From Diplonema papillatum (lineage: Eukaryota), in assembly GCA_030068145.1 (NCBI GenBank), contig JAPJBO010000158.1:117818-181817 (forward strand): a stretch of 64,000 bases of DNA, given 5' to 3'. Positions 173-46,593 of this stretch are shown here, in pieces (position 1 is the stretch's first letter; each line of letters begins with the position of its first letter). Position numbers and translations under genes: made by a program. A model generated the notes under the pieces. The model ran no database searches. It was not told where the DNA came from and saw only the letters and a list, made by a program, of their open reading frames with translations.

Positions 173-2485
173 ATGTGGAGCAGGCTCGTCGCGGTGGTGG
201 CCGTGCTTGGGTTGCAAGCCGAAGCAATGGAAAAGAATCCCGTGTCGAACGCGGATATGTGCAAGCTCGCGAAGACGCTGGACGGGAAGGTTCTGCTGTC
301 GACCGCGACGTGTTGCGTCGGCTATGCCCGACCGGTGAACTACCTGTGCCCGGCTAATACCGGCGACGAAACATTCGCGAAGACGACGGCGCAGTACCTG
401 ATGGATTGCGATGGGGAAATCCCGGACGGAGTGATCATCGCGAAGGGGCCGGGTGACGTGAGCAAAGCGCTTGCGTACGCGAAGGCAGCGAACGTGGCGT
501 TCCGCGTGAAGAGCGGTGGACACAGCCAGGCTTGCCTGAGCACAGTTAAAGACGGTGTGGTGCTGTCTTTGGAGTCGATGAAGAAGATAGAGTACATCAA
601 CCACGACGACGGGTCTGTGTTCGTGACGATTGAAGCGGGTGTGACGTTGACGGAGCTTCGGGCGGACTACATCGCGAACAGTGACGTGTACTTCCCGCAC
701 GGACTTGACCCGTGGATCGGTGCCGGTGGACACTTCACTGGTGGTGGAGTGGGCCACCTTGTGAGAAAGTTCGGGTTCGGTTCGGACTTCGTGGTTGGGA
801 TGGACGTGGTGCTGCCGTCGGGAGAGTTCGTGCAGGTGTTCGAGCCGGAGTACGAGGAGAGGCTGACGGGGCGGCTGAGCGTGTACAACGAGAGAGACCG
901 ACAGCTCCTGTGGGGCTTGAAAGGTAGCGGACACGCGAACTTCGGAGTGGTGACGAAGTTCTGGATGCGGACCATCCCGCGTCCGGCGTACGTGGTGCTT
1001 GGAAAGTACTCTTACAACATCGCGGACAAGACGAGTGTGGAGGAGTACTGGAACTCGATGTGCGGGTACTACTCGAAGGCACCGGAGGACGAGACGGCGG
1101 AAGAACGGAACTTGCTCGTGTGGCCGATGGTGAGCAACAACAGAGAGGGACCAGGGTTCCTGATGCGGTTCATCATCTACTACATCCCGGACAACAACAG
1201 CACTGCGCAGGGAGCTCTCGACGAGGCGACGCCGGTTGTGAACGCGTTCCTGACGCACGTGAACGGGCTGACTTACCACTCGGGAGGCATCGAGGCAGTG
1301 GCTGAGAGCGGGCAGTTCCCGAATCTGGTGGACCCGAGCGTGAGCCGTTACGCACCGACATGCGTTTCGAGGATCGTTCCGTCGCGGGAAGACGTGTGCA
1401 ACAGAGACGGGTGGATTGGGAAGTTCGCTGACTTCATCTACGACGAGATCAGCTTGTTTCCTTCGCGGGGGACGACGCTGTTCACGTACTTCGACAAGTG
1501 GGGCGGGGCAGCTTCGCTGAACGACGCAAACTTCGAGCGGACGTCGGTGAACACGCGGAACGCATATGGCACGATTCAGTTCTGCAGAATCCCGTTGAAC
1601 GTTGCGACGCGGGACACGAATGCCATGATCAACGGTGAAGGTGGTACGAAGGACTTCAACGACTCGGTGCTGGCAGATGTGGGCAACGGGTGGTACTTGA
1701 ACTTCCTCGACACGTTGGCGACGGAACCCGAGCAAATCTACACCGAGCCGGCGGTGTACCAGCGACTTCAGAAGGTGAAGAACGTTTACGATCCGACGAA
1801 CGTTCTCGACAGGCCTCTCGGCGTGCCTCTGCCGGGGTCGGAGTTCTTGGCAGACAGCACCTTGGCGTTGGTCGGCGCTTCGGCACCGACGGGACAAGAC
1901 TACTGCAAACTCTCTGGCACGTTAGAGGGCGCTGTCTTGATGCCTGTGATGGGATGCTGCGGCACCAGCGCGGTGCCGCCAGGCTTTCCGTGCACAGCCG
2001 ACCCAGCGAACGGGAACCTGAGCTACGCTGAGAGCCACAATCGCGTTCTGGTCGACTGCGACGATCTGAAGCCCAACGCCGTCATCATCGCCCGAAGCGC
2101 GTTGGACGTTACGAAGTCGCTGAAGTTCATCAAGGAGCGAGACATCGACTACCGCATCCGTTCCGGCGCTCACAGTCAGTCGTGCGCGAGCACGTGCAGT
2201 AACTGCGTTGTTATCTCGCTGGAGAAAATGAAGGGCATCGACTACGTGACATCTGACACGGGTGCGACGTTCATGGGAGTCGAGCCGGGTGTCGTGTTGA
2301 AGGAGCTCATTGCCGACTACCAGGACCACAGCGACGTGTACTTCCCGCACGGTCTGGACGCACCCGTCGGCCTCGGGGGGCACTTGGGTGGTGGAGCTGT
2401 CGGCTACCTCACGAGGAAGTTCGGCTTCGGCGCAGACTTCATTGTTGGCGTGGAACTTGTTCTCGGGAACGGCAAGTTCGTTCAG
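173..2485 (+). CDS. BBE-like FAD-linked oxidase paralog 1, exon 1 (signal peptide; complete module 1 and N-terminal part of module 2)
   Basis: ORF 173..2500. N-terminus MWSRLVAVVAVLGLQAEA reads as a signal peptide. Motifs RVKSGGHS (His for covalent FAD) and GAGGHFTGGGVGHLVRKFGFGSDFVVGMDVV (FAD_binding_4). BBE C-terminal-like WYLNFLD...YQRLQKVKNVYDPTNVL. A second RIRSGAHS...GGHLGGGAVGYLTRKFGFG starts module 2. Exon ends at a cag|gtgtgc donor. Confidence 0.88.
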
Positions 2486-2710
2486 GTGTGCTTCTTCTGA
2501 TGCACGCAAAACTTTTCAAAGAGCCTTGACAGTTTCCATGTCGCGGTGTTCAGTACGCCATCTTGTTCTTTAAGGCGACACACACGCGTGTTCGTACTTC
2601 CGTGAAGGCACCGAGTTGTATAGCGCTTTAAAACAGGTCCGTTACACACACACCCACTATACTCCGCGTCAGGTGTTACCCATCATTGAATTTCGCACCC
2701 ACTCGCATAG
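2486..2710 (+). other. Intron (GT..AG, phase 0) of BBE paralog 1
   Basis: Donor ttcag|gtgtgc, acceptor tcgcatag|gtc. Homology to module 1 (EFVQVFEPEYEE vs KFVQ|VYDQDYEE) resumes exactly at the acceptor. Read-through gives VQVCFF-stop. Confidence 0.8.
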
Positions 2711-3682
2711 GTCTATGACCAGGACTACGAAGAACAGCTGCTTGGGTACAGGCGAGCGCACAACGACGAGGACCAAGACCTTCTGTGGGCTGTGAAGGGG
2801 AACGCTCACGCAAACGTCGGGGTGGTGACGCGGTACTGGATGCGCACTATTCCTCGTCCGAGCTACATGGTGAAAGGGTTTTACCTGTTCGGAGTGCAGT
2901 CTGCAGTTCACCTGCGCAGCTTCTGGGGATCAGTATGCAAGTTCTACTCTGTCTCCGACGAGTCGCCGAAGGCCAAGAATCTGATTATATGGCCGTTCGT
3001 CCGGTCCGGGAACCAGCTGATGCTGCAAGTGTTCTACCTGCCCGACCGCAACGACACGGCCAGCGGTGCACTGGCAGAGGCGGAAGAAGTGTTGCACGAG
3101 TTCTTGGTAGGTGTGACGGCGCCGTTGATAACGCAGAGTATCCAGGCCGTGCCAGACAAGATGCAGTTCGCCGACATTTTGAACGACCAGGGCGGACGGA
3201 CGACGTACAGCTGCACCTCGAGACTTGTGAGGAAGCGAGAGGATGTTTGCGACAACTGGTCGTTCTTGGACAGCTTCGCTGACAGGATGTGGTACGAGAT
3301 GGTGAACCCTGTTGTGGACCAGACGTTTTTCGCGTACTTCGACCCTTGGGGAAGTGCGGCCACGACCAACGACCCGGACTTCGTGAAGTCGTCATTCATG
3401 GGCAGGCATGCGTGGGGGACGTTCCAGTACTGCAGGACACCCGTGGGCGCCGTCACGAGGGAAGCTTTGTGGGCAACGGTTGACACGTTCGACAGTCTGA
3501 TCGCGTCTCAGATCAGCGACTCGTGGTACGTGAACTTCCAAGACAGAACGACGACAAACCGGTCGCAGGTTCTGTTCGTTCCGGAGGTGAACGAAAGGCT
3601 GCAGACGATCAAAGCGAAGTACGACACGACCGGCGTTTTCTCGAGTCCGCTGACTGTCACGTTGCCCGAACGTGGGTGGTGA
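2711..3682 (+). CDS. BBE-like oxidase paralog 1, exon 2 (rest of module 2, including its BBE C-terminal domain)
   Basis: In frame with ORF 2792..3682. VYDQDYEEQLLGYRRAHNDEDQDLLWAVKGNAHANVGVVTRYWMRTIPRP parallels module 1 VFEPEYEERLTGRLSVYNERDRQLLWGLKGSGHANFGVVTKFWMRTIPRP. Ends WYVNFQD...ERLQTIKAKYDTTGVF (BBE domain). Confidence 0.86.
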   Translation, partial: VYDQDYEEQLLGYRRAHNDEDQDLLWAVKGNAHANVGVVTRYWMRTIPRPSYMVKGFYLFGVQSAVHLRSFWGSVCKFYSVSDESPKAKNLIIWPFVRSGNQLMLQVFYLPDRNDTASGALAEAEEVLHEFLVGVTAPLITQSIQAVPDKMQFADILNDQGGRTTYSCTSRLVRKREDVCDNWSFLDSFADRMWYEMVNPVVDQTFFAYFDPWGSAATTNDPDFVKSSFMGRHAWGTFQYCRTPVGAVTREALWATVDTFDSLIASQISDSWYVNFQDRTTTNRSQVLFVPEVNERLQTIKAKYDTTGVFSSPLTVTLPERGW

Positions 3683-3968: not shown

Positions 3969-4200
3969 TTTTTTTTTTTTACATGAGCGCCAGCTTGGAA
4001 GGAAATGCTCGACGAAGCTGCGAGACAACGAACCGAGGGGATCCCAACTGCTGTAACTAGTCTACCCCCACGACAAGACACACAAACACAACGGGTCGAA
4101 AGTCCTGGGTGAGAAAACAACACACGGTGGTGTAAGCGAAGTACGAAGGAAGTCAATCGGAGTCAAAGCAGCGACGTCGAGTATACCGTAATTGGAATAA
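3969..4200 (-). mobile_element. Short A-tailed retroposon (family R1, SINE-like), copy a
   Basis: T-run on the plus strand (A-tail on the minus strand) then acatgagcgccagcttggaaggaaatgctcgacgaagctgc...gggatcccaactgctgtaacta...ctacccc...cacaaacacaac..gtc.aaagtcctgggtgagaa. Five copies in the window. Confidence 0.5.
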
Positions 4201-7490: not shown

Positions 7491-7509
7491 CTTATCTTCG
7501 TGGGACAAT

Positions 7510-9825
7510 ATGTGGAGTAGGCTCGTCGCGGTGGTGGCCGTGCTTGGGCTGCAAGCCGAAGCAATGGAAAAAAATCCCGTGTCGAACGCGGATATGTGCA
7601 TGCTCGCGAAGACGCTGGACGGGAAGGTTCTGCTGTCGACCGCGACGTGTTGCGTCGGCTATGCCCGACCGATGAACTACCTCTGCCCGGCTCATACCGG
7701 CGAAGAAACGTACGACACAACGACGAAGCAGTACCTGATGGATTGCGATGGGGAAATCCCGACCGGAGTGATCATCGCAAAGGGGCCGGGAGACGTGAGC
7801 AAAGCGCTTGCGTACGCGAAGGCAGCGAACGTGGCGTTCCGCGTGAAGAGCGGTGGACACAGCCAGGCTTGCCTGAGCACGGTTAAAGACGGTGTGGTGC
7901 TGTCTTTGGAGTCGATGAAGAAGATAGAGTACATTAACCACGACGACGGGTCTGTGTTCGTGACGATGGAAGCGGGTGTGACGTTGACGCAGCTTCGGGC
8001 GGACTACATAGCTAACAGTCACGTGTACTTCCCGCACGGACTTGACCCGTGGATCGGTGCCGGTGGACACTTCACTGGTGGTGGAGTGGGCCACCTTGTG
8101 AGAAAGTTCGGGTTCGGTACAGACTTCGTGGTTGGGATGGACGTGGTGCTGCCGTCGGGAGAGTTCGTGCAGGTGTTCGAGCCGGAGTACGAGGAGAGGC
8201 TGACGGGGCGGCTGAGCGTGTACAACGAGAGAGACCGACAGCTCCTGTGGGGCTTGAAAGGAAGCGGACACGCGAACTTCGGAGTGGTGACGAAGTTCTG
8301 GATGCGAACTATCCCCCGTCCAGCTTACGTAGTGCTTGGAAAGTACTCTTACAACATCGCGGACAAGACGAGTGTGGAGGAGTACTGGAACTCGATGTGC
8401 GGGTTTTACTCGAAGGCGCCGGAGAACGAGACGGCTGGAGAACGGAACTTGCTCGTGTGGCCGATGGTGAGCAACAACAGAGAGGGACCAGGGTTCCTGA
8501 TGCGGTTCATCATCTACTACATCCCGGACAACAACAGCACTGCGCAGGGAGCTCTCGACGAGGCGACGCCGGTTGTGAACGCGTTCCTGGCGCACGTGAA
8601 CGGGCTGACGTTCCACTCGGGAGGCATCGAGGCTGTGGCGGAAAACGGGCAGTTCCCGAATCTGGTGGACCCGAGCGTGAGCCGATACTCGCCGACATGC
8701 GTTTCGAGGATCATTCCGTCGCGGGAAGACGTGTGCAACAGAGACGGGTGGATTGGGAAGTTCGCTGACTTCATCTTCGAAGAGATCAGCTTGTTTCCAT
8801 CGCGGGGGACGACGCTGTTCACGTACTTCGACAAGTGGGGCGGGGCAGCTTCGCTGAACGACGCAAACTTCGAGCGGACGTCGATCAACACGCGGAACGC
8901 ATATGGCACGATTCAGTTCTGCAGAATCCCGTTGAACGTTGCGGCGCGGGACACGAATGCCATGATCAACGGTGAAGGTGGTACGAAGGACTTCAACAAC
9001 ACAGTGCTCGCAGATGTGGGCAACGGGTGGTACTTGAATTTCCTTGACACGTTGGCGACGGAACCCGAGCAAATCTACACCGAGCCGGTGGTGTACCAGC
9101 GACTTAAGAAGGTAAAGCACGATTACGATCCGACGAACGTTCTCCACAGGCCTCTCGGCGTGCCTCTGCCGGGGTCGGAGTTCTTGGCAGACAGCACCTT
9201 GGCGTTGGTCGGCGCTTCAGCACCGACGGTACAAGACTACTGCAAACTCTCTGGCACGTTAGAGGGCGCTGTCCTGATGCCTGTGATGGGATGCTGCGGC
9301 ACCGACCCGTGGCCGCCAGGCGTGCCGTGCGCAACCGACACATCGAACAACGCGCAACTGAGCTACGCTGCGAGCCAGGCTCGTCTTCTTGTCGACTGCG
9401 ACAATCTGAAGCCCAATGCCCTCATCATCGCCCGAAGCGCGTTGGACATTACGAAGTCGCTGAAGTTCATCAAGGAGCGAGACATCGACTACCGCATCCG
9501 ATCCGGCGCTCACAGTCAGTCGTGCGCGAGCACGTGCACTAACTGCGTTGTTATCTCGCTTGAGGAATTGAAGGGCATCGAATACGTGACATCTGACGCA
9601 GGTGCGACGTTCATGGGAGTCGAGCCGGGTGTCGAGTTGAAGCAACTAGTTGCTGACTACCAGGACCACAGCGACGTGTACTTCCCGCACGGTCTGGACG
9701 CACCCGCCGGCATCGGAGGACACTTGGGCGGTGGAGCTGTCGGCTACCTCACGAGGAAGTTCGGCTTCGGTTCTGACTTCATTGTCGGCGTGGAACTTGT
9801 TCTTGGGAACGGCAAGTTCGTTCAG
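7510..9825 (+). CDS. BBE-like FAD-linked oxidase paralog 2, exon 1
   Basis: Inside ORF 7393..9840. Conserved start MWSRLVAVVAVLGLQAEAMEKNPV. ~95% aa identity to paralog 1. Same motifs and same donor cag|gtgtgc. Confidence 0.87.
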
Positions 9826-9975
9826 GTGTGCTTCTTCTGATGCACGCAAACCTCTACCATTCGAACCGGAAGGAATCATAACAGTTTTTGTGTGTTCTGT
9901 TCAGCACACCATTTTGTTGTTGTCTACCCCAACGAACCAACTACCACTCACACAAACCCACCAACACTCACACAG
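9826..9975 (+). other. Intron (GT..AG, 150 bp) of BBE paralog 2
   Basis: Donor cag|gtgtgc, acceptor cacacag|gtttac. Downstream frame is ORF 9892..10947. Confidence 0.8.
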
Positions 9976-10947
9976 GTTTACGAGCAGGACTACGAAGAAC
10001 AGCTGCTTGGGTACAGGCGAGCGCACAACAACGAGGATCAAGACCTTCTGTGGGCTGTGAAGGGGAACGCTCACGCAAACGTCGGGGTGGTGACGCGGTT
10101 CTGGATGCGCACCATTCCTCGTCCGAACTACATGGTGAAAGGGTTTTACCTGTTCGAGGCGGAATCTGCAATCCACCTGCAGAGCTTCTGGGGATCAGTG
10201 TGCAAGTTCTACTCCGTCGACGACGAGTCGCCGAAGGCCGAAAATCTGATTTTGCGGCCCTTCCTCCGGTCCGGGAACCAGCTGGAGCTGGAAGTGTACT
10301 ACCTGCCAGACCGCAACGACACGGCCAGCCGTGCACTGGCGGAGGCGGAAGAAGTGTTGCGCAAGTTCTTGGTAGGTGTGACGGCACCGCTGATAACACA
10401 GAATCTGCAGGCCGTGCCAGACAAGATGCAGTTCGACAATATGTTGAATGGCCAGGGCGGACGGACGACGGACAGCTGCACCTCGAGACTTGTGAAGAAG
10501 CGAGAGGATGTTTGCGACAACTGGTCGTTCTTGGACAGCTTCGCTGACAGGATGTGGTACGAGATGCAGAACCCTGTTGTGGACCAGACATTTTTCGCTT
10601 CCTTCGACCCTTGGGGAGGTGCGGCCGCGGCAAACGACCCGGACTTCGTGAAGTCGTCGTTCATGGGCAGGCATGCGTGGGGGACGTTCCAATACTGCAG
10701 GACACCTGTGGGCGCCGTCACGAGGGAAGCTTTGTGGGCACCGATTGACAAGTTCGACAGTCTGATCGCGTCTCAGATCAGCGACTCGTGGTACGTGAAC
10801 TTCCAAGACAGAACGACGACAAACCGGTCGCAGGTTCTGTTCGTTCCGGAGGTGAACGAAAGGCTGCAGACGATCAAAGCGAAGTACGACACGACCGGCG
10901 TTTTCTCGAGTCCGCTAACTGTCGCACTGCCCGCGCGCGAATGGTAA
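9976..10947 (+). CDS. BBE-like oxidase paralog 2, exon 2
   Basis: VYEQDYEEQLLGYRRAHNNEDQDLLWAVKGNAHANVGVVTRFWMRTIPRP. Same 972-nt length as the other exon 2s. Substitutions cluster in the presumed substrate-binding part. Confidence 0.85.
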   Translation, partial: VYEQDYEEQLLGYRRAHNNEDQDLLWAVKGNAHANVGVVTRFWMRTIPRPNYMVKGFYLFEAESAIHLQSFWGSVCKFYSVDDESPKAENLILRPFLRSGNQLELEVYYLPDRNDTASRALAEAEEVLRKFLVGVTAPLITQNLQAVPDKMQFDNMLNGQGGRTTDSCTSRLVKKREDVCDNWSFLDSFADRMWYEMQNPVVDQTFFASFDPWGGAAAANDPDFVKSSFMGRHAWGTFQYCRTPVGAVTREALWAPIDKFDSLIASQISDSWYVNFQDRTTTNRSQVLFVPEVNERLQTIKAKYDTTGVFSSPLTVALPAREW

Positions 10948-12492: not shown

Positions 12493-14324
12493 AAACAAAG
12501 GTCGAGACATCAATCTGATCGTCCCTCGGGATCGACGGTAGCACCATAAAAAAAACTTTAATCCTAAAAACCCAAAAACGAAATACATGAAGAATACTGA
12601 CCGACGACGGAATGCAGATGGGCGCAGCTTGCTGCGTACTATCTCTTTTCGTGCATCGATGCATCAAGTATCATCACACCGATCACGCCCCCTCCAGAAA
12701 AAGGAGAAGGAAAAGGAGCGGCGCAGACGCAATCATAAACCCACATTGAAAAATGACGCCAGCGCAGACGACTAATTCGTCCGAAAACCCAGATGGTGCC
12801 GTCGTTTGTTGCAAAAGCAAGACACACTCGGGGTTGTCCGTTGTCAAGAAGGAGCGATCGCATGCGTTTCGCCTCCGGGATTGTGCACGTTCGTGTCACG
12901 TGGTCTGTGAGCGTCTTCTGGCACCGCGGAACCGGTTCCGTTGGGTGCGTGCCAGGATTTGCTGTGCGGCCCCGTGCAGAGCCCTACAATCTCTACAGGC
13001 ATCCGCCGGCGTTCGCTAGCCTGCTTGTTACCCAACTCGCGCTTCAAAGAAGGAGCCACGTGCAGTTTGTTTGAAACCTCAATTCTATCATTCAAAAAAA
13101 AAAACGAAAATGAAGCAAAGGCGCATTCAGTAAGAAGGGACGGGATAAAGACCCTCACCGACATGCCGTCAGCTCACCTAAGCCGGACCCCTCGAGCCAG
13201 GGGAATCGTAACACATGCATCTAAAACGAAATACCTGTCTCGACTGCCCCTCGCTCCGTTTCTTCCAGGCAGTCCACGAAAGTGTGACTGCAGATGCTCT
13301 CCCCTTACGTACGCAACCAATACTCTCGGCAGCAAATAGAGGTGCGATGGCTGAAGAATTCACTGGCAAAATGCGAACAAACTTCGGCTGTATCGTCTCT
13401 CCATGTGTGGCCCTATTTATCGGGGTATTTCGGAAAAAATCCTAAAATCCTATTTATGCTTTTTGCACTTTTTCTGCCACTACTTTTTGCACCCTTTTCG
13501 GTTCGAGGCGATGTCCAAACTTCCTCGATCGGCCACGTTGCTGCCCTCGAGACTTGTGACGCAGCAAAGGAACCATCACGCTGCAACCACCACAGCATCT
13601 CCGTGTCGGGGCATCAACCTAGCCTTCTTCGTGCATCCAACTCATGGCCGATACTGCCATGAGCGACATCATCCGTGGGACTGAATACCCAGGAACTCCC
13701 TGTTATCTTCGCTTTTCTCCTTGTAGCCTGGTTCAGAAAAGTGCAAAAATATATTCTTTTTGCCAAAATCTGTTATTACGGTAACGCTCTGAGGGCCACA
13801 CCTGCGTCTCTCTCCGGTTTCTTTCTTTGTATAAGCACCTGCTTTGTATGAAATACTCGGAGGCCGCCAGTTGCAAAATCTGGAGGAGGAATGCGCTGTA
13901 ACCCACACAAAACACACAGGGAAAACTGGGCTGAGTGGCGGGCGTAAGCGTTCAACCAAAAAGAACCATTTGTAGTTGTATTGTTTCTCCCCCTCTAGCC
14001 TCCGTCGAACTAAGCACCGGGCGGCCCCTCCGAGTGTTTTTGTCACCGCACTCTTTTGCGTCCGCTTCCTCCCTCGATCGTCCACGTTTTCAGTACCTGC
14101 ATGGGTCTCTCTCCCGGACGTTTGCCACCCCTAATATTTTGCACACGGTGCACCTGACATTTTGCAAAAGACCCGCTACTACGATAACGCTGCCTTCGTC
14201 GCTGTGGACCGGTTGGGACCTTCAAAACGAACAACACGCGGCCTTCGCGCATGTCTTTTCGCCCTTGTTTTCCTCCTCGTTCCCTTAATATTCGCGAGAC
14301 CTTTCCCTTTCGTTTTACGTAAGC

Positions 14325-14525
14325 GCCAACTTGGTAGGAAATGCTCGACGATGCTGCCAGACAAAGAACAGACGGGATCCGAAGTGCTGTAACTACCGAA
14401 CCACGTGTTGAACGGACGCGAGGTCTACCCCTACACGACGAATCACACAAACACAACAGGTCAAAGTCCTGAGTGAGAATACAGCACACGGGGGTGCAAG
14501 CGAAGACACAAAATAACAACGTCAG
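14325..14525 (-). mobile_element. R1 SINE-like element, copy b
   Basis: cgttttacgtaagcgccaacttggtaggaaatgctcgacgatgctgccagacaaagaacagacgggatccgaagtgctgtaactaccgaaccacgtgttgaacggacg...ggtctacccctacacgacgaatcacacaaacacaacaggtcaaagtcctgagtgagaa. Confidence 0.5.
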
Positions 14526-15316: not shown

Positions 15317-15340
15317 GCAAACAAAACTGCCAAACTGAAC
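15317..15340 (+). promoter_or_regulatory. Conserved upstream motif (gcaaacaaaactgccaaactgaac), 19 nt before the ATG of paralog 3
   Basis: See paralog 1 motif. Confidence 0.3.
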
Positions 15341-15358
15341 CACGTGTGTGAACGCAAC

Positions 15359-31553: not shown

Positions 31554-33866
31554 ATGTGGCGCAGGGTTATTGCGGTGGTGGCCGTGCTTGGGCTGCAAGC
31601 AGAAGCAACAACGAAGAATCCCGTGTCGAACGCGGATATGTGCAAGCTCGCGAAGACGCTGGACGGGAAGGTTCTGCTGTCGACCGCGACGTGTTGCGTC
31701 GGCTATGCCCGACCGGTGAACTACCTCTGCCCGGCTAATACCGGCGACGAAACATTCGCGAAGACGACGGCGCAGTACCTGATGGATTGCGATGGGGAAA
31801 TCCCGGACGGAGTGATCATCGCGAAGGGGCCGGGTGACGTGAGCAAAGCGCTTGCGTACGCGAAGGCAGCGAACGTGGCGTTCCGCGTGAAGAGCGGTGG
31901 ACACAGCCAGGCTTGCCTGAGCACGGTTAAAGACGGTGTGGTGCTGTCTTTGGAGTCGATGAAGAAGATAGAGTACATCAACCACGACGACGGGTCTGTG
32001 TTCGTGACGATTGAAGCGGGTGTGACGTTGACGCAGCTTCGGGCGGACTACATCGCGAACAGTGACGTGTACTTCCCGCACGGACTTGACCCGTGGATCG
32101 GTGCCGGTGGACACTTCACTGGTGGTGGAGTGGGCCACCTTGTGAGAAAGTTCGGGTTCGGTTCGGACTTCGTGGTTGGGATGGACGTGGTGCTGCCGTC
32201 GGGAGAGTTCGTGCAGGTGTTCGAGCCGGAGTACGAGGAGAGGCTGACGGGGCGGCTGAGCGTGTACAACGAGAGAGACCGACAGCTCCTGTGGGGCTTG
32301 AAAGGTAGCGGACACGCGAACTTCGGAGTGGTGACGAAGTTCTGGATGCGGACCATCCCGCGTCCGGCGTACGTGGTGCTTGGAAAGTACTCTTACAACA
32401 TCGCGGACAAGACGAGTGTGGAGGAGTACTGGAACTCGATGTGCGGGTACTACTCGAAGGCACCGGCGGACGAGACGGCGGAAGAACGGAACTTGCTTGT
32501 GTGGCCGATGGTGAGCAACAACAGAGAGGGACCAGGGTTCCTGATGCGGTTCATCATCTACTACATCCCGGACAACAACAGCACTGCGCAGGGAGCTCTC
32601 GACGAGGCGACGCCGGTTGTGAACGCGTTCCTGACGCACGTGAACGGGCTGACTCTCCACTCGGGAGGCATCGAGGCAGTGGCTGAGAGCGGGCAGTTCC
32701 CGAATCTGGTAGACCCGAGCGTGAGCCGTTACGCACCGACATGCGTTTCGAGGATCGTTCCGTCGCGGGAAGACGTGTGCAACAGAGACGGGTGGATTGG
32801 GAAGTTCGCTGACTTCATCTACGACGAGATCAGCTTGTTTCCTTCGCGGGGGACGACGCTGTTCACGTACTTCGACAAGTGGGGCGGGGCAGCTTCGCTG
32901 AACGACGCAAACTTCGAGCAGACATCGGTGAACACGCGGAACGCATATGGCACGATTCAGTTCTGCAGAATCCCGTTGAACGTTGCGACGCGGGACACGA
33001 ATGCCATGATCAACGGTGAAGGTGGTACGAAGGACTTCAACGACTCGGTGCTGGCAGATGTGGGCAACGGGTGGTACTTGAACTTCCTTGACACGTTGGC
33101 GACGGAACCCGAGCAAATCTACACCGAGCCGGCGGTGTACCAGCGACTTCAGAAGGTGAAGAACGTTTACGATCCGACGAACGTTCTCGACAGGCCTCTC
33201 GGCGTGCCTCTGCCGGGGTCGGAGTTCTTGGCAGACAGCACCTTGGCGTTGGTCGGGGCTTCGGCACCGACGGGACAAGACTACTGCAAACTCTCTGGCA
33301 CGTTAGAGGGCGCTGTCTTGATGCCTATGATGGGATGCTGCGGCAGCAGCGTGGTGCCGCCAGGCTTTCCGTGCACAGCCGACCCAGCGAACGGGAACCT
33401 GAGCTACGCTGAGAGCCACAATCGCGTTCTGGTCGACTGCGACGATCTGAAGCCCAACGCCGTCATCATCGCCCGAAGCGCGTTGGACGTTACGAAGTCG
33501 CTGAAGTTCATCAAGGAGCGAGACATCGACTACCGCATCCGTTCCGGCGCTCACAGTCAGTCGTGCGCGAGCACGTGCAGTAACTGCGTTGTTATCTCGC
33601 TGGAGAAAATGAAGGGCATCGGCTACGTGACATCTGACACGGGTGCGACGTTCATGGGAGTCGAGCCGGGTGTCGTGTTGAAGGAGCTCATTGCCGACTA
33701 CCAGGACCACAGCGACGTGTACTTCCCGCACGGTCTGGACGCACCCGTCGGCCTCGGGGGGCACTTGGGTGGTGGAGCTGTCGGCTACCTCACGAGGAAG
33801 TTCGGATTCGGCGCAGACTTCATTGTCGGCGTGGAACTTGTTCTCGGGAACGGCAAGTTCGTTCAG
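31554..33866 (+). CDS. BBE-like FAD-linked oxidase paralog 4, exon 1
   Basis: Inside ORF 31416..33908. Start MWRRVIAVVAVLGLQAEA. Almost identical to paralog 1 over most of its length. Confidence 0.87.
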
Positions 33867-34089
33867 GTGTGCTTCTTCCGATGCACGCAAAACTCTAGAG
33901 AGTCTTGACACTTTCCGTGTTGCGGTGTTCAGCAAGCCATTTTGTACTTTAAGGCGACACGCACGCGTGTTCGTACTTCCGTGAAGAGGCACTGCGTTAC
34001 ATAACTCTTTTAAACGGGTCCGTAGCACACACCCAATACTCCGCGTCAGGTGTTACCCATCATTGAATTCCACACCCACTCACACGCAG
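33867..34089 (+). other. Intron (GT..AG, 223 bp) of BBE paralog 4
   Basis: Donor cag|gtgtgc, acceptor cacacgcag|gtctatgac. Intron sequence is also very similar to the paralog 1 intron. Confidence 0.8.
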
Positions 34090-35061
34090 GTCTATGACCA
34101 GGACTACGAAGAACAGCTGCTTGGGTACAGGCGAGCGCACAACGACGAGGACCAAGACCTTCTGTGGGCTGTGAAGGGGAACGCTCACGCAAACGTCGGG
34201 GTGGTGACGCGGTACTGGATGCGCACTATTCCTCGTCCGAGCTACATGGTGAAAGGGTTTTACCTGTTCGGAGTGCAGTCTGCAGTTCACCTGCGCAGCT
34301 TCTGGGGATCAGTATGCAAGTTCTACTCTGTCTCCGACGAGTCGCCGAAGGCCAAGAATCTGATTATATGGCCGTTCGTCCGGTCCGGGAACCAACTGAT
34401 GCTGCAAGTGTTCTACCTGCCCGACCGCAACGACACGGCCAGCGGTGCACTGGCAGAGGCGGAAGAAGTGTTGCACGAGTTCTTGGTAGGTGTGACGGCG
34501 CCGTTGATAACGCAGAGTATCCAGGCCGTGCCAGACAAGATGCAGTTCGCCGACATTTTGAACGACCAGGGCGGACGGACGACGTACAGCTGCACCTCGA
34601 GACTTGTGAGGAAGCGAGAGGATGTTTGCGACAACTGGTCGTTCTTGGACAGCTTCGCTGACAGGATGTGGTACGAGATGGTGAACCCTGTTGTGGACCA
34701 GACGTTTTTCGCGTACTTCGACCCTTGGGGAAGTGCGGCCACGACCAACGACCCGGACTTCGTGAAGTCGTCATTCATGGGCAGGCATGCGTGGGGGACG
34801 TTCCAGTACTGCAGGACACCTGTGGGCGCCGTCACGAGGGAAGCTTTGTGGGCAACGGTTGACACGTTCGACAGTCTGATCGCGTCTCAGATCAGCGACT
34901 CGTGGTACGTGAACTTCCAAGACAGAACGACGACAAACCGGTCGCAGGTTCTGTTCGTTCCGGAGGTGAACGAAAGGCTGCAGACGATCAAAGCGAAGTA
35001 CGACACGACCGGCGTTTTCTCGAGTCCGCTGACTGTCACGTTGCCCGAACGTGGATGGTGA
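34090..35061 (+). CDS. BBE-like oxidase paralog 4, exon 2
   Basis: In frame with ORF 34063..35061. Protein virtually identical to paralog 1 exon 2. Confidence 0.86.
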   Translation, partial: VYDQDYEEQLLGYRRAHNDEDQDLLWAVKGNAHANVGVVTRYWMRTIPRPSYMVKGFYLFGVQSAVHLRSFWGSVCKFYSVSDESPKAKNLIIWPFVRSGNQLMLQVFYLPDRNDTASGALAEAEEVLHEFLVGVTAPLITQSIQAVPDKMQFADILNDQGGRTTYSCTSRLVRKREDVCDNWSFLDSFADRMWYEMVNPVVDQTFFAYFDPWGSAATTNDPDFVKSSFMGRHAWGTFQYCRTPVGAVTREALWATVDTFDSLIASQISDSWYVNFQDRTTTNRSQVLFVPEVNERLQTIKAKYDTTGVFSSPLTVTLPERGW

Positions 35062-36633: not shown

Positions 36634-37440
36634 ATGCCACCAAAGAAGCTACAGCGTGTGGATCCAAAGAAGGAGGGGATTCCCCGGGACATCGCAAGCC
36701 TGTTCGGGCTCGCATCTCGGCAAACAGGACGGCAGACCAACGTCCCGAAAGAGGGGACAAACACGGAGTACGAGCGGTGGACAAAGGAGTCGTACTCAGA
36801 AGTTGAGAAGGCCAACTCCCTGCACGACTTTCTGCACGAAAATCACCCGACCTACTTCCTTTGCGATGTCGTGATAAACCGCGCAACTGAAGGTTTAGCA
36901 GGCTTTACCCGCGTGACACCCCAGACAGTCCAGGCCTATCATGCCGAAGTGGCCACGCCCTACGTTAACGGGCTAATCTCTGACCTTCGTTCGGGTTTGA
37001 AGAGCAACCTGGGTGTCATGGAGGGATTCAGCCTTTTTGACCTGAGTGGGCCTGTGGCTGGAAACCAACCTGAGGCGGTCAGACTTGTTGATATTCTTGT
37101 CGCCCATTACGGCGAGGAAAAGGTCCGACCAACCCAGGAAGGCAGATCCGCACGTTCTCCTCCCTTTCTCAATGCCCGCTTCATTGCAGATTTCAGGAAT
37201 GAGGTTTTTCCCCGAGCCGACGACGAGCACAGATCTGTTCTCGAGGAGCTCAAAACTGTTGCAAACACACTGACTCGCTACAGCTATACCGCAGCCCTAA
37301 AGCTGTTTCTCATGGATGTCACACTGACCTCTCTGTACCCGTGCACAAGCCTCCTCATGAACGCGGCCCTTTCGACACCTCTCGGAACGGCATCGGTTGA
37401 AAGACTGTTCAGTTTGATGAAGCTGATCAAAACGAGGAAA
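36634..37440 (+). mobile_element. hAT-superfamily (ZMYM1/Charlie-like) transposase C-terminal relic; no DDE catalytic N-terminal part
   Basis: ORF 36634..37620. ...LSTPLGTASVERLFSLMKLIKTRKRW matches the hAT dimerisation signature (..(C/S)ER.FS.(M/L)..(L/I)KT..R..). Downstream runs into A-rich junk. Confidence 0.5.
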
Positions 37441-38243
37441 AGGTGGCATACAGCATGCAGTTGCAGCAAAAAAAAAAAAAACACGCCCAGACCGGAACTC
37501 AGGATTTTTTCGAAGCCTCGTATAAACCCCTGTGCTCGCAGGAGGGGGGAAAAAAAAAATAGAACAAACAAAAGGAAAAAAAAAAAAAAAACGGAAGAAG
37601 CGAAGTTCAAGAAAAGTTGACTAGCGATACAGTAATCAGCTCTCCAAGTTTTTTTCTGCTACTAAAATGACCACCCGGCGGAGGAATGACGGAGTGTTCC
37701 AGTCGAAAGGAACATGTGTTGAGCTCGCACGCCACAGGCTGCGCCCGCCGACAACCCCCCCCCGCGCTTTGAATCCTCCGCTGCTGGAAAAAGAAGACGA
37801 GTGGTCGAAAAATGCTCAACTAGAGAAAAAGAAACACAAAAAAAGGGCAAAAAAAAAAAAAAAAAAAAAAACGACGGTAACACAAAAAGAATCGAGACGC
37901 GGGGGCATGCATATGTTCCCGGGTAGCTCAAAAGAAAGCTGGCGTTCTAGTCGCGCGGTCTTCAAGCGCGAGGGCAAGGAACCCACTCTCGTGCTTCGGT
38001 CGCGGACCGCTTTTGACTTCTCCCGCACTCTCTTTTTCGCAGAGGAGAGGCGCGCCCTCCCGCCTCGGTGTGGTTGTGGGGGTCCTGTTGGTCATAGGTT
38101 CTCCTCGCCGTCTCACTGCACGAACCGGTGTGCCTTGACACGGTAGGGCGGCACCTGCAACCGTCGTGGACCCCCCATCACCCGCCGTGTGCGCGATACG
38201 TCCATCTCTTCCTCGTGCTGAAAGGAAAGGGGAAGACTATGTG

Positions 38244-38535
38244 TTTTTTTACATAAGCGCCAGCTTGAGAGGAAATGCTCGACGATGCTGCCAGACAAAA
38301 AAAAACAGAAGGGATCCCAAGTGCTGTAACTACCGAACTACGTGTTGAACGGACGTGAGCTCATGCGGGTCTACCCCTACACGACAAATCGCACAAACAC
38401 AACAGGTCAAAGTCCTGAGTGAGAAAGCAACACACAGCGAAGAACAAATCAGATTGTGTTTGTATTGTACCTCTATATATATTTCCTCCCTTCCATTCGG
38501 AGTCGAAGCAGCTACGTCGAGTATTTCTCTCTCTT
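38244..38535 (-). mobile_element. R1 SINE-like element, copy c (most complete, ~290 bp)
   Basis: gtttttttacataagcgccagcttgagaggaaatgctcgacgatgctgccagacaaaaaaaaacagaagggatcccaagtgctgtaactaccgaactacgtgttgaacgg...ttccattcggagtcgaagcagctacgtcgagtat. Not adjacent to any BBE gene. Confidence 0.5.
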
Positions 38536-41169: not shown

Positions 41170-42720
41170 GTCCCATGTATGCACGGTGAGGTCCAGCGTG
41201 TGGAGCGGGACTCCGAGCGCTGCCACGTTGTTCACAAAGCCCCACTGAGTTCCTCCCGGACGAATCCTGCGCACCCAGCTCTCGACGCACCGTTGGCGAA
41301 CCGTCCACAGCTATTATCGCAACCGCGCTGACCTTTTCGAGAGCACAGCAAAGCAAGTCGAAGGGTGTTCCAGCGGGAGCGGAAACGAAGCTGCGGCCGC
41401 TGCAAAACGCGGGAAGCGACGTGGCCACCTTCCCTTCTTCCGGAAGGAACGGTTTCCGGAGGAAGCCCGGCACCGCCGCCGAGCTGCACGCCAGCGCCCG
41501 ACTTCGGCGGCCACTCGCAGAGTGCGCTGCCCGTGGGCTCCGTGACCGGAGGCAGGTCGTCGGTCGTCCAATGGACGCTCGTGTAGGGGTCCGCCAGCCG
41601 GACTGCGTACAGAGAAGACGTTCGGCGTTCCGCCGCACGAGGAGCCCGAGACAAGATGTGGCTGGCTGCATGTGGAGCAGGACTCCGAACTGCCACGTTG
41701 TCCACACAGCCCCGCTGCGGTCCTCCCGGACGAATCCTGCGTGCACCCAGCTCTCGTCGCCGATGGCGGACCGTCCACAGCTTTATCGCAACCGTGCTGA
41801 CCTTTTCAAGAGCACAGCAAAGCATGTTGAAGGGTGTTCCAGCGGGAGCGGAAACGAAGCTGGGACCGCTGCAAAACGCGGGAAGCGACGTGGTCACCTT
41901 CCCTTCTTCCGGAAGGAACGGTTTCCGGAGGAAGCCCGGCACCGCCGCCGAGCTGCACGCCAGCGCCCGACTCCGGCGGCCACTCGCAGAGTGCGCTGCC
42001 CGTGGGCTCCGTGACCGGAGGCAGGTCGTCGGTCGTCCAATGGACGCTCGTGTAGGGGTCGCCAGCCGGACTGCGTACAGAGACGTTCGGCGTTCCGCCG
42101 CACGAGGAGCCCGAGACAAGATGTGGCTGGCTGCGTGTGCAGCGGGACTCGTTACGGAGCCGAGCGCTGCCACGTTGTCCACACAGCCCCGCTGCGTTCC
42201 TCCCGGACGAAAATCCTGTCTGCACCCAGCTCTCGTCGCACCGGCGGACCGTTTTCGAGAACACAGCAAAGCAAGTCGAAGGGTGTTCCAGCGGGAGCGG
42301 AAACGAAGCTCGGACCGCTGCAAACGATGGGGCCACCTTCCCTTCCTTCCGGAAGGAACGGTTTCCGGGGGACGCCCGGCACCGCCGCCGAGCTGCACGC
42401 CAGCGCCCGATTCGGCGGCCACTCGCAGAGTGCGCTGCCCGTGGGCTCCGTGACCGGTGGCAGGTAGTCGGTCGTCCAATGGAACCTCGCAGCATGCCAA
42501 GGCCCCCCTGGCCCGGCGAGATCCCTCAGACGTAGGGGTCTGCCAGCCGACGGCACCCACTGCGGTGCAGAGAAGTTCGGCGTTCCGCCGCACGAAGAGC
42601 ACGAGACAAAATGTGACTGGCTGCGTGTGGACGGGACTCGCCTGCCACGGTCCACACAGCCTCGCTGCGTTCTTCGCGGACGAATCCTGCGAGCACCCAG
42701 CTCTCGTCGCACACAGTAGA
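41170..42720. repeat. Satellite-like tandem repeat, ~445-470-bp unit x ~3.3, ending ~180 bp upstream of BBE paralog 5
   Basis: Unit landmark gaga(g/a)cacagcaaagca(a/t)gt(c/t)gaagggtgttccagcgggagcggaaacgaagct at ~41339, ~41808 and ~42253. Unit contains ...gacaagatgtggctggctgcatgtggagcaggactc. ORFs 41232..42755(-), 41421..42014(+) etc. are repeat artefacts. Confidence 0.7.
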
Positions 42721-42880: not shown

Positions 42881-42897
42881 ATCGAATTTTACGCAAC

Positions 42898-45210
42898 ATG
42901 TGGAGCAGGCTCGTCGTAGTCGTGACGATTCTTGGGCTGCAAGCCGAAGCAACAGCACAAAATCCCGTGTCGAACGCGGATATGTGCAAGCTCGCGAAGA
43001 CGCTCGAAGGAAAAGTTTTGCTTGCGGGTTCGACGTGCTGTCTCGGCTTTGTGCGTGCGATGAACTACGTCTGCCCGGCTAGTGAAGGGGACGAAACGTT
43101 CGCGGAGACGACGCAACAGTACCTGATGGATTGCGACGGGGAAATCCCGGGTGGAGTGATCATCGCGAAGGGGCCGGGAGACGTGGGTAAAGCGCTTGCG
43201 TACGTGAAGGCAGCGAAGGTGGCGTTCCGCGTGAAGAGCGGTGGACACAGCCAGGCTTGCCAGAGCACCGTTAAAGACGGTGTGGTGCTGTCGGTGGAGT
43301 CGATGAAGAAGGTGGAGTACATTAACCTCGACGACGGGTCTGTGTTCATAACTGTTGAGCCGGGTGTGACTATATCGCAGCTTCGCACGGACTACTTAGC
43401 GAACAGTAACGTATACTTCCCACACGGGCTGGACCCGTGGATCGGTGCCGGTGGACACTTCACTGGTGGTGGAGTGGGCCACCTTGTGAGAAAGTTCGGG
43501 TTCGGTACAGACTTCGTGGTTGGGATGGACGTGGTGCTGCCGTCGGGAGAGTTCGTGCAGGTGTTCGAGCCGGAGTACGAGGAGAGGCTGACGGGGCGGC
43601 TGAGCGTGTACAACGAGAGAGACCGACAGCTCCTGTGGGGCTTGAAAGGAAGCGGACACGCGAACTTCGGAGTGGTGACGAAGTTCTGGATGCGGACTAT
43701 CCCCCGTCCGGAATACGTGGTGCTTGGAAAGTACTCTTACAACATCGCGGACAAGACGAGTGTGGAGGAGTACTGGAACTCGATGTGCGGGTACTACTCG
43801 AAGGCACCGGCGGACGAGACGGCGGAAGAACGGAACTTGCTTGTGTGGCCGATGGTGAGCAACAACAGAGAGGGACCAGGGTTCCTGATGCGGTTCATCA
43901 TCTACTACATCCCGGACAACAACAGCACTGCGCAGGGAGCTCTCGACGAGGCGACGCCGGTTGTGAACAAGTTCCTGACACACGTGAACGGGCTGACTCT
44001 CCACTCGGGAGGCATCGAGGCTGTGGTGCAGAGCGGGCAGTTCCCGAATCTGGTGGACCCGAGCTCGAGCCGTTACGCACCGACATGCGTTTCGAGGATC
44101 GTTCCGTCGCGGGAAGACGTGTGCAACAGAGACGGGTGGATTGGGAAGTTCGCTGACTTCGTCTTCGAAGAGACCAGCTTGTTTCCATCGCGGGGGACGA
44201 CGGTCTTCACGTACTTCGACAAGTGGGGCGGGGCAGCTTCGCTGAACGACGCAAACTTCGAGCGGACGTCGGTGAACACTCGGAACGCATATGGAACCAT
44301 TCAGTACTGCAGAATCCCGTTGAACGTTGCGGCGCGGGACATGAATGCTATGATCAACGGTGAAGGTGGCACGAAGGACTTCAACGACTCGGTGCTGGCA
44401 GATGTGGGCAACGGGTGGTACTTGAACTTCCTCGACACGTTGGCGACGGAACCCGAGCAAATCTACACCGAGCCGGCGGTGTACCAGCGACTTCAGAAGG
44501 TGAAGAACGTTTACGATCCGACGAACGTTCTCGACAGGCCTCTCGGCGTGCCTCTGCCGGGGTCGGAGTTCTTGGCAGACAGCACCTTGGCGTTGGTCGG
44601 GGCTTCAGCACCGACGTTTATAGACTACTGCAAACTCTCTGGCACGTTAGAAGGCGCTGTCCTGATGCCTATGATGGGATGCTGCGGCAGCAGCGCGGTG
44701 CCGCCAGGCTTTCCGTGCGCAGCCGACCCAGCGAACGGGAACCTGAACTATGCTGAGAGCCACAATCGCGTTCTGGTCGACTGCGACGATTTGAAGCCCA
44801 ACGCCCTCATCATCGCCCGAAGCGCGTTGGACATTACGAAGTCGCTGCACTTCATCAAGGAGCGAGACATCGACTACCGCATCCGATCCGGCGCTCACAG
44901 TCAGTCGTGCGCGAGCACGTGCAGTAACTGCGTTGTTATCTCGCTGGAGAAAATGAAGGGCATCAACTACGTGACATCTGACACGGGTGCGACGTTCATG
45001 GGCGTCGAGGCGGGCGTCGAGTTGAAGCAACTCGTTGCCGACTACCAGGACCACAGCGACGTGTACTTCCCGCACGGTCTGGACGCGTCCGGTGGCATCG
45101 GCGGGCACCTGGGTGGTGGAGCTGTCGGCTACCTCACGAGGAAGTTCGGTTTCGGTTCTGACTTTATTGTCGGCGTCGAAGCTGTGCTCGGGAACGGCAA
45201 GTTCGTCCAG
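42898..45210 (+). CDS. BBE-like FAD-linked oxidase paralog 5, exon 1 (most divergent copy)
   Basis: Inside ORF 42814..45327. Start MWSRLVVVVTILGLQAEA. RVKSGGHSQACQS and GAGGHFTGGGVGH conserved. C-terminal end of the exon differs (KFVQ|gtattc donor). Confidence 0.85.
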
Positions 45211-45621
45211 GTATTCATCACGTTCCCTGCCAGCTGCTTGTTCCGTCAAATTCGTCAGAAGAACGGGCTCACGAAATGCTTATCAGCGTATCAACAGAAG
45301 AGCAACATGCAAATCAACAAGAGATAACCGCCACGGGGGCTTGTCGTCGGTACACAAGTCGGCCTACAACCGCTCAGGAACTCCTTCGAAAAGAAGACTT
45401 GTTCTCACGTACAAAAAGGTTCCAGAAATTCAAAACTCTGTCGGGACTACTTAGTATCGGAGCGCGCGTAACGCCCGATCCACCCCATCGCAGTTGAGCG
45501 GTCCAGACCAGCTCACTCGTCAACGTGCGGAGTTAACCCCGATGATAAAACCACGTTTTCTTACATCTGTTGTGGCGAAGCTGCTGCAGTTGCCACGTCA
45601 AGACATTCTCCCACTCGACAG
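45211..45621 (+). other. Intron (GT..AG, 411 bp) of BBE paralog 5
   Basis: Donor cag|gtattc, acceptor ctcgacag|gtttacgat. Longest of the five introns. Confidence 0.75.
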
Positions 45622-46593
45622 GTTTACGATAAGGAGTATGAAGAAAGGTTATTTGGCTACAGGAGGGCGTACAACGAGGAGGACCAAGACCTTCTGTGGG
45701 CTGTGAAGGGGAACGCTCACGCAAATATCGGGGTGGTGACGCGGTATTGGGTGCGCACCATTCCTCGTCCGAACTACATGGTGAAAGGGTTCTACCTGTT
45801 CGAAGCGCAGTCTGTGGACCACCTGCGCAGCTTCTGGGGATCAGTGTGCAAGTTCTACTCCGTCGGCGACGAGTCGTCGAAGGCCAATAATCTGATTGTG
45901 CGCCCACGCATCGCGTCCCCGAACAAGCTGATGCTGCAAGTGTACTACCTGCCCGACCGCAACGACACGGCCAGCGGTGCACTGGCAGAGGCGGAAGAAG
46001 TGTTGCACGAGTTCTTGGTAGGTGTAACGGCGCCGTTGATAACACAGAGTATCCAGGCCGTGCCAGACAAGATGCAGTTCGAGGACATCTTGAACGACCA
46101 GGGCGGACGGACGACGTACAGCTGCACCTCGAGACTTGTGAGGAAGCGAGAGGATGTTTGCGACAACTGGTCGTTCTTGGACAGCTTCGCTGACAGGATG
46201 TGGTACGAGATGCAGAACCCCGTCGCGGACCAGACGTTTTTCGCGTACTTCGACCCTTGGGGGAGTGCAGCCACGACGAACGACCCGGACTTCGTGAAAT
46301 CGTCGTTCATGGGCAGGCATGCGTGGGGGACGTTCCAGTACTGCAGGACACCTGTGGGCGACGTCACGAGGGAAGCTTTGTGGGCAACGGTTGACGAGTT
46401 CGACAGTCTGATCGCGTCTCAGATCAGCGACTCGTGGTACGTGAACTTCCAAGACAGAACGACGACAAACCGGTCGCAGGTTCTGTTCGTTCCGGAGGTG
46501 AACGAAAGGCTGCAGACGATCAAAGCGAAGTACGACACGACCGGCGTTTTCTCGGGTCCGCTGACTGTCACACTGCCCGAACGGAACTGGTGA
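45622..46593 (+). CDS. BBE-like oxidase paralog 5, exon 2
   Basis: VYDKEYEERLFGYRRAYNEEDQDLLWAVKGNAHANIGVVTRYWVRTIPRP... In frame with ORF 45703..46593. 972 nt. Confidence 0.84.
   Translation, partial: VYDKEYEERLFGYRRAYNEEDQDLLWAVKGNAHANIGVVTRYWVRTIPRPNYMVKGFYLFEAQSVDHLRSFWGSVCKFYSVGDESSKANNLIVRPRIASPNKLMLQVYYLPDRNDTASGALAEAEEVLHEFLVGVTAPLITQSIQAVPDKMQFEDILNDQGGRTTYSCTSRLVRKREDVCDNWSFLDSFADRMWYEMQNPVADQTFFAYFDPWGSAATTNDPDFVKSSFMGRHAWGTFQYCRTPVGDVTREALWATVDEFDSLIASQISDSWYVNFQDRTTTNRSQVLFVPEVNERLQTIKAKYDTTGVFSGPLTVTLPERNW

Follow-up and report, generated by a model that had tools for sequence, protein, structure and literature searches.

BBE-like flavoenzymes have been studied as single-module catalysts that oxidise alkaloids, antibiotics or oligosaccharides and that assist, as auxiliary enzymes, in the breakdown of biomass, and no description of a two-module member was found in a 2024 review of the family or by full-text search. 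The fungal oligosaccharide oxidases of CAZy family AA7 are secreted. Among them GOOX (1ZR6/3HSU), ChitO (6Y0R), XylO (5K8E) and FgCelDH7C (6YJI) are single-module proteins of ~470–500 residues with the VAO/PCMH plus BBE fold. Here we describe a stretch of 64,000 nucleotides from the nuclear genome of the marine protist Diplonema papillatum (contig JAPJBO010000158.1, positions 117,818 to 181,817; the window) with a tandem array of five genes, each encoding a protein with two BBE-like modules in one chain. We assign a probability of roughly 0.6 to the reading that these genes belong to a lineage-specific, tandemly amplified family of soluble, disulfide-rich flavoproteins of the secretory pathway, with two BBE-like (VAO/PCMH-fold) modules per chain.

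By sequence the proteins are members of the BBE-like/VAO family, with profile matches to solved BBE-like enzymes at a best E of 1.8e-31. Profile matches to the AA7 oligosaccharide oxidases run down to E = 1.9e-22 with target-normalised TM-scores of 0.75–0.81, and the histidine for covalent attachment of flavin adenine dinucleotide (FAD) and the tyrosine of the BBE motif are shared. However, identity to the AA7 enzymes is 17–19%, and where GOOX links its FAD through His and Cys, as given in the PDB entry titles, the Diplonema proteins have Asp at the Cys position. The plant enzymes AtBBE-like 15 and EcBBE carry a motif, G-x-[C/D]-x-x-[gatekeeper]-G-x-G-G-H, that can be aligned with both modules, although their FAD is bicovalent and their substrates are monolignols and reticuline. 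The bacterial 6-hydroxy-D-nicotine oxidase (6HDNO; 2BVF) shares the fold in a single module of 459 residues; its flavin is attached through histidine only, and the enzyme is cytosolic.

Five two-module genes in tandem

The window has a G+C content of ~55% and its gene structure is eukaryote-like. From the open reading frame (ORF) listing and translation, each paralog consists of a long plus-strand ORF followed a few hundred bases on by another ORF that encodes the rest of the protein, and in all five genes a canonical GT…AG intron joins these two exons in frame, giving proteins of 1093–1095 residues. Gene g1 (173–3682) has exon 1 at 173–2485, an intron of 225 nt at 2486–2710 and exon 2 at 2711–3682, and encodes 1094 residues; g2 (7510–10947) has exons at 7510–9825 and 9976–10947 around an intron of 150 nt (9826–9975; 1095 residues); g3 (15359–18768) has exons at 15359–17668 and 17797–18768 around an intron of 128 nt (17669–17796; 1093 residues); g4 (31554–35061) has exons at 31554–33866 and 34090–35061 around an intron of 223 nt (33867–34089; 1094 residues); and g5 (42898–46593) has exons at 42898–45210 and 45622–46593 around an intron of 411 nt (45211–45621; 1094 residues). 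The array runs from 173, the g1 ATG, to 46593, the final base of the g5 stop codon, with start-to-start distances from g1 to g5 of 7337, 7849, 16195 and 11344 bp. A preliminary description of this DNA had listed five same-strand copies spaced 7–16 kb apart within these bounds and encoding proteins of ~1090 residues, and all of this is correct (the spacing is 7.3–16.2 kb). For g3, an in-frame ATG upstream at 15155 would add 68 residues (15155–15358) and bury the signal peptide; we took 15359 as the start because likeness to the other copies begins only ~44 nt before that ATG. Pairwise DNA identity between the paralogs is 87–98% over ~3.3 kb, and their resemblance is therefore not due to chance.

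In g1, module 1 (251–1834, plus strand; residues ~27–554) comprises a Cys-rich N-terminal sub-domain, FAD_binding_4 (residues 84–221), a substrate-binding domain and the BBE motif (residues 508–552). A linker of ~19 residues, GSEFLADSTLALVGASAPT (1835–1891, plus strand; residues 555–573), lies within exon 1 and leads to module 2 (1892–3679, plus strand; residues 574–1094), which has the same domain order and is interrupted by the intron after residue 771. In the spliced protein, FAD_binding_4 (PF01565) scores 82.4 bits in module 1 and 73.7 bits in module 2 against a Pfam gathering cutoff of 26.4, and BBE (PF08031) scores 24.7 and 25.1 bits against a cutoff of 20.6, so that both modules exceed both thresholds. 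The two modules are 43% identical to each other over ~530 residues (E = 3e-147), with the Cys-rich N-terminal segment included, and 10 cysteines are invariant in all module 1 and module 2 sequences. Pfam, the module alignment, these cysteines and the N-terminal sequence support the arrangement originally proposed, with a predicted signal peptide followed by two units of Cys-rich N-terminus, FAD_binding_4 and BBE. What had been called a Cys-rich leader is indeed present in both modules but is not a separate element; in the structural model it folds as the N-terminal part of the module, and it is also present in single-module relatives.

The junction between the modules lies inside one uninterrupted exon-1 ORF in all five genes, with no stop codon and no frameshift, and the two-module protein is therefore not a gene-model fusion. 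No in-frame start was found that could give module 2 a signal peptide of its own. Both modules are in a single reading frame, which excludes, at the DNA level, the possibility that they are two separate genes.

An AlphaFold2 model of full-length g1 has a mean predicted local distance difference test score (pLDDT) of 82.6 and a predicted template modelling score (pTM) of 0.54. Values of pLDDT below 50 occur only at residues 1–17 (signal peptide) and 554–569 (linker), and module 2 reaches ~82 with a plain alignment. The Cys-rich segment (residues ~26–72; pLDDT 74–93) is modelled as a helix and short strands built into the module. Both modules fold confidently, and the model predicts two well-folded modules whose mutual orientation is undefined, since pTM is 0.54 despite the high pLDDT. 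The 50 best Foldseek matches in the PDB, which include EncM, ChitO, GOOX, TamL, XylO, EcBBE, PpBBE1 and 6HDNO, are all single-module BBE-like proteins and none spans both modules; TM-scores are 0.70–0.85 when normalised to the target and no higher than 0.38 when normalised to the query.

Active sites and the oxygen gatekeeper

Motifs were compared across nine module 1 and nine module 2 sequences. The candidate 8α-N1-histidyl-FAD histidine is present in all five window genes, in the motif SGGHS in module 1 (His117 in g1, nt 521–523) and SGAHS in module 2 (His667, nt 2171–2173), and the two potential covalent-FAD sites noted earlier for these proteins are those of His117 and His667. Every module 1 sequence and all but one of the module 2 sequences retain this His, and likewise the Tyr of the WYxNF motif (in g1 Tyr508, nt 1694–1696, and Tyr1044, nt 3527–3529), and the Gly-rich FAD loops are kept in both modules of all five window genes. 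Tyr508 and Tyr1044, where the BBE motif begins, occupy profile position 2 of the Pfam BBE model, and judging by the motif they may correspond to the catalytic Tyr429 of GOOX. Where a 6-S-cysteinyl link would need Cys, both modules have Asp (Asp179 and Asp729 in g1), whereas foraminiferal relatives and the best PDB matches (9p1p, 9p1o) have Cys. Because of this Asp a single covalent FAD link is expected per module, and the proteins would fall in the monocovalent minority of the BBE-like family, a known state (PMC11375781).

The residue three positions past the 6-S-cysteinyl site is the gatekeeper for oxygen. In AtBBE-like 15 (Cys179, Leu182) the substitution L182V makes reoxidation by O2 ~400-fold faster, and EcBBE has Val there (PMC4513132). 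The gatekeeper is Ile in all nine module 1 sequences (Ile182 in g1), similar to the Leu/Ile dehydrogenase type, while among the module 2 sequences of the window it is Val in g1 (Val732), g3 and g4, Ala in g2 and Gly in g5, Val being the EcBBE oxidase type and also the residue in most single-module and outgroup relatives. With its Ile gatekeeper, module 1 is predicted to be dehydrogenase-like and slow with O2, and module 2, where the gatekeeper is Val or smaller, is expected to behave as an oxidase. The modules also differ in a CxxxCxxC motif (CASTCSNC in g1) that follows the His motif in module 2 and of which module 1 lacks two cysteines; the motif is kept in the single-module Diplonema paralogs, and its CxxC part in foraminiferal relatives. 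Compared with these relatives, the Ile gatekeeper and the lost cysteines mark module 1 as derived and module 2 as ancestral-like.

The ratio of nonsynonymous to synonymous divergence (dN/dS) is 0.27–0.45 for module 1 and 0.06–0.73 for the two parts of module 2, and values of ~0.1–0.7 indicate that both modules are under purifying selection. Judging from the sequences, both modules are probably active and functionally differentiated. In KAJ9463413.1 (P0015), which lies outside the window and has diverged furthest of the two-module paralogs, module 2 is a candidate degenerate module: the covalent His is replaced by Gln and the Tyr by Ser, and the gatekeeper is Asp.

Origin, spread and annotation of the family

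At least 10 two-module genes are present in the D. papillatum genome, five of them in the window. Further copies are KAJ9463413 (~55% identity) and KAJ9463414 (~62%) on the same contig, placed relative to the window from accession order only, KAJ9465102 and KAJ9465103 on a 363-kb contig, and KAJ9452604 on a 170-kb contig. When a module profile was run exhaustively with HMMER against 1.84 billion cluster representatives, there were 11,255 matches, only 25 of them at E ≤ 1e-30. The top matches were the single-module D. papillatum proteins KAJ9472754, KAJ9472746 and KAJ9472744, a tandem pair from the European Nucleotide Archive (ENA) and foraminiferal proteins; bacterial matches were far weaker, at ~100 bits. 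Neither this search nor one of 5.8 billion proteins, which traced the genes to Diplonema (Paradiplonema) papillatum, found a two-module relative in another organism, and of 69 matches to two short junction-region peptide patterns in Joint Genome Institute metagenome contigs none was confirmed by tblastn. On these sequences the two-module family is found so far only in D. papillatum.

Of the single-module relatives, the full-length proteins KAJ9472754, KAJ9472746 and P0080 (ENA) score 396–473 bits and the fragment KAJ9472744 scores 307 bits, at 30–39% identity. They share with the two-module family the Cys-rich N-terminus, a Cys four residues after the covalent His and a His in the GGGGNFG loop, and they too have no 6-S-cysteinyl Cys. 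They differ in having one module, in 565–572 residues; like module 2 they keep the CxxxCxxC motif, and two of them have its Val gatekeeper. The ENA assembly ERZ25333236 contains, on ctg641 (830 kb; L001 1–1324, 6001–7719), two tandem intron-less single-module genes of 572 residues, and this pair represents the nearest relatives of the family outside D. papillatum.

A neighbour-joining tree of modules with 300 bootstrap replicates groups the module 1 sequences at 100% and the module 2 sequences at 98.7%. Module 1, module 2 and the single-module Diplonema genes group together at 93%, and module 1 and module 2 are sisters at 58%. As module 1 and module 2 are each monophyletic, the two-module gene arose once, before amplification. 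It had been proposed that the module was duplicated in cis and the product then amplified: the single origin followed by amplification stands, whereas the cis step depends on the node at 58%, and from the tree we regard duplication in cis as likely, in preference to fusion of two older paralogs. The intron position is common to all copies with visible DNA, and older truncated EukProt versions of KAJ9463413 and KAJ9463414 end exactly at it. Retroposition as the mechanism of duplication was rejected because the intron is kept at the same position in every copy, and a recent origin by horizontal transfer from bacteria was rejected because the nearest non-Diplonema relatives are eukaryotic (foraminifera) and bacterial matches are far weaker.

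Comparison of the window with itself shows that likeness between the copies (87–98%) is limited to the gene bodies. Genes g1 and g4 are 98–99% identical from ATG to stop codon, but their flanks are unrelated, and over the 100 nt past the stop codon and more than 70 nt upstream of the ATG identity is at the random baseline of ~56%. In this and other pairs likeness ends no more than ~70 nt from the ATG and within ~20 nt of the stop codon. Gene g3 is a mosaic, in that its module 1 has diverged furthest among those of the window (synonymous divergence, dS, 0.27–0.32) whereas its module 2 is nearly identical to those of g1 and g4 (dS 0.04–0.07). Likeness bounded by the coding sequence, together with the mosaic structure of g3, suggests gene conversion restricted to the coding region. 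Such conversion is known from tandem arrays of kinetoplastids, which are sister to the diplonemids.

Two-module BBE-like proteins occur independently in bacteria and fungi, as seven of the 150 best matches in the HMMER profile search, verified with Pfam, so that the architecture is rare, as had been supposed, but not unique. Two copies of FAD_binding_4 plus BBE are found in WP_300349412.1 (Clostridium sp., 883 residues, on several contigs), KAF9969390.1 (Actinomortierella), P0085, P0099 and P0109, and P0095 combines a terpene synthase, a cyclase and two BBE units; the terpene-synthase fusion among the two-module matches has 1854 residues. The bacterial and fungal proteins lack the Cys-rich N-terminus of the Diplonema modules, and they are distant (~100–190 bits versus >1100 bits within the Diplonema family), which argues that these fusions are independent. 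Some of the fungal two-module entries may be annotation mergers.

The GenBank annotation of the array needs correction in a misleading product name, one chimeric model, one split gene and one apparently unannotated gene. Our spliced models of g1, g2 and g4 are residue for residue the same as KAJ9463415.1, KAJ9463418.1 and KAJ9463420.1 (320-kb contig), and the claim of an unusual BBE–BBE fusion of ~1090 residues is weaker than it was first put, since these genes already stood at full length in GenBank. All three carry the product name "6-hydroxy-D-nicotine oxidase", which, from the comparisons made here, is an automated similarity label without specific support and is misleading. The chimeric KAJ9463417.1 (1095 residues) joins g2 exon 1 (7510–9825) to g3 exon 2 (17797–18768), jumping ~8 kb that include the second exon of g2 and the first of g3. 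It probably arose from multi-mapping RNA-seq reads, a kind of artefact about which the D. papillatum genome paper cautions. No GenBank protein of its own was found for g3 among the proteins retrieved, and g3 appears to be unannotated. Gene g5 is split into KAJ9463421.1 (809 residues, running 36 codons into the intron) and KAJ9463422.1 (271 residues, equal to residues 824–1094), and the 411-nt GT–AG intron of our gene model restores the complete protein.

Proposed function and surroundings of the array

The g1 protein opens with a predicted signal peptide (173–226, plus strand), read by rule: MWSRLVAVVAVLGLQAEA shows what is typical of a cleavable signal peptide, namely charge, a hydrophobic core and an AxA pattern with Ala at −3 and −1, and an equivalent segment opens g2–g5. 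In a hydropathy scan of the whole protein no stretch of 19 residues reached transmembrane level, and no membrane anchor is therefore predicted. Each protein has 22–23 cysteines and 6–7 N-glycosylation sequons, and a chain of 1094 residues would have an estimated mass of ~120 kDa prior to glycosylation. From these features we infer a soluble protein of the secretory pathway.

Each module would then bind one FAD through a single 8α-histidyl link (His117, His667), with no 6-S-cysteinyl link, and would oxidise its substrate (by analogy at the hydroxyl of an alcohol or sugar), the hydride passing to flavin N5; the flavin would in turn be reoxidised by O2, yielding H2O2, or by another acceptor, and the copies would be kept alike through gene conversion. 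The most plausible role is to oxidise small substrates, derived from carbohydrates or of other kinds, outside the cell or in lysosomes. A carbohydrate-linked role is proposed because D. papillatum has a large secreted repertoire for the degradation of polysaccharides and other carbohydrates (PMC10161547; PMC12697944). For a pectin-degrading protist such as D. papillatum, a functional analogy, and only that, is offered by another protist, Phytophthora infestans, with secreted BBE-like galacturonide oxidases that oxidise pectin fragments (PMC12537922). The structural and evolutionary parts of the preliminary description are supported, and its extracellular, bifunctional part is plausible.

The interest of the family, which we regard as moderate, lies mainly in the systematic gatekeeper difference between modules 1 and 2 and in the lineage-specific amplification. 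A naturally fused pair of diverged modules, present as 10 or more genes in a marine predator of ecological relevance, offers a system for asking whether two flavin sites on one chain cooperate. As the modules differ systematically at a residue for O2 reactivity, it is also a system for studying the choice between oxidase and dehydrogenase after duplication, and for asking what oxidative chemistry diplonemids perform outside the cell.

Several points weigh against this interpretation. A signal peptide is evidence of entry into the secretory pathway only, which bears on an extracellular role. The genes are not mentioned in the searchable text and supplements of the D. papillatum genome and subcellular-proteome papers, and in the searchable text of the genome paper's table of carbohydrate-active enzymes the sole AA7 gene is DIPPA_26583, which is outside the window set; this suggests that standard profiles do not pick out the proteins as carbohydrate oxidases. 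The gatekeeper rule was derived from bicovalent enzymes of plants and fungi and may not hold for the Diplonema proteins. The residue equivalent to the catalytic Tyr193 of AtBBE-like 15, mapped by counting 14 residues on from the Cys/Asp along GGHxxGGGxG in the numbering of PMC4513132, is Val in both modules, and from sequence a catalytic base is not assignable. Lastly, the pTM of 0.54 may be due to shallow coverage of module 2 in the alignment and not to true flexibility, because bacterial homologs aligned on module 1 only.

The location and the division of work between the modules could be read differently. The proteins may be kept in the cell (endoplasmic reticulum, lysosome or digestive vacuole) or at its surface, acting on ingested material or making H2O2 locally, which we consider possible but doubtful. 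In the D. papillatum subcellular proteome, signal-peptide-bearing carbohydrate-degrading enzymes are mostly at the cell membrane and in lysosomes (PMC12697944), and a signal peptide is all that the sequence offers; however, neither a transmembrane segment nor a hydrophobic C-terminus of the glycosylphosphatidylinositol type was found, the C-terminal tails (…LPERGW, …LPAREW, …LPERNW) show no evident retention motif, and the proteins did not turn up in the supplements of that study that could be searched. A strict division of labour on one secreted chain, with module 1 a dehydrogenase and module 2 an O2-reducing oxidase making H2O2, is unlikely; in such a scheme module 1 would hand its electrons to an acceptor outside the protein, which might be a quinone or a redox partner such as a lytic polysaccharide monooxygenase, and the whole, if true, would be a self-contained extracellular redox tool against prey or algal cell walls, amplified in copies that gene conversion keeps uniform. 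We are similarly sceptical that one module is a catalytically dead pseudo-enzyme serving the other as a structural, chaperone-like or substrate-binding partner, an idea put forward at the outset. Module 2 diverges faster between deep paralogs (g1 and KAJ9463413 are 49% identical in module 2 and 65% in module 1), its gatekeeper is variable (V, A, G, I or D), in KAJ9463413 it lacks the covalent His and the BBE-motif Tyr, and in P0110, a two-module protein of Clostridium, the His motif of the first module reads as an atypical RNHRHDF and that of the second as a canonical RGGGHNY. Against this, the His, Tyr and Gly-rich motifs are kept in both modules of all five window genes, the dN/dS of module 2 is in the range of that of module 1, and both modules fold confidently. 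The kept motifs and the dN/dS values disfavour a pseudo-enzyme for the window genes, whereas the idea fits module 2 of KAJ9463413.

Two further explanations concern what the genes are at all. That the proteins are 6HDNOs, as their GenBank name says, or amine or alkaloid oxidases generally, is very improbable. It is true that 6HDNO is a monocovalent member of the same fold, with a profile E of 3.4e-20 and a target-normalised TM-score of 0.80, but dozens of BBE-like enzymes with other substrates score equally well or better; 6HDNO ranks 43rd in Foldseek at 18% identity, its profile entry (2bvf) ranks ~15th, behind enzymes of unrelated substrates, and alkaloid or nicotine catabolic genes were not seen in the window. 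As 6HDNO scores no better than members with other substrates, the proteins are not specific 6HDNO orthologs. We give hardly any credence to the view that the two-module proteins are gene-model or assembly artefacts in which adjacent single-module genes were merged, even though the annotation of the array itself holds a chimeric and a split model, and some fungal two-module entries (Tulasnella, P0004) look merged, with near-identical halves joined by unrelated sequence. In Diplonema the junction lies in a continuous ORF in the paralogs outside the window as well as in the five within it, module 2 has no start codon that would provide a signal peptide, and the linker is conserved. The copies, moreover, differ from each other by 2–12%, and are therefore separate loci and not assembly duplicates.

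The window has further features. In the interval from g3 to g4, a small intron-less ORF at 29375–29740 (plus strand) encodes a protein of 121 residues with a cupin domain (Pfam Cupin_2, E = 4.9e-12). Between g4 and g5, an ORF of 328 residues at 36634–37620 (plus strand) weakly matches the dimerisation domain of hAT transposases, below threshold (18.9 bits against a cutoff of 21.4), and may be a transposon remnant. A ~470-bp tandem repeat at 41196–42712 (~3.2 copies, 80–97% identity) ends ~185 nt upstream of the g5 ATG and resembles the 'repeat-bounded gene structures' described for the D. papillatum genome; a minus-strand ORF of 507 codons that spans it matches no Pfam family and is unlikely to be a real gene. 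A dispersed intergenic repeat of ~200–300 bp (73–88% identity) occurs in both orientations at 3970–4147, 14313–14512, 38244–38527, 47241–47510 and 53389–53691, and a perfect (CA)137 dinucleotide microsatellite lies at 56731–57004.

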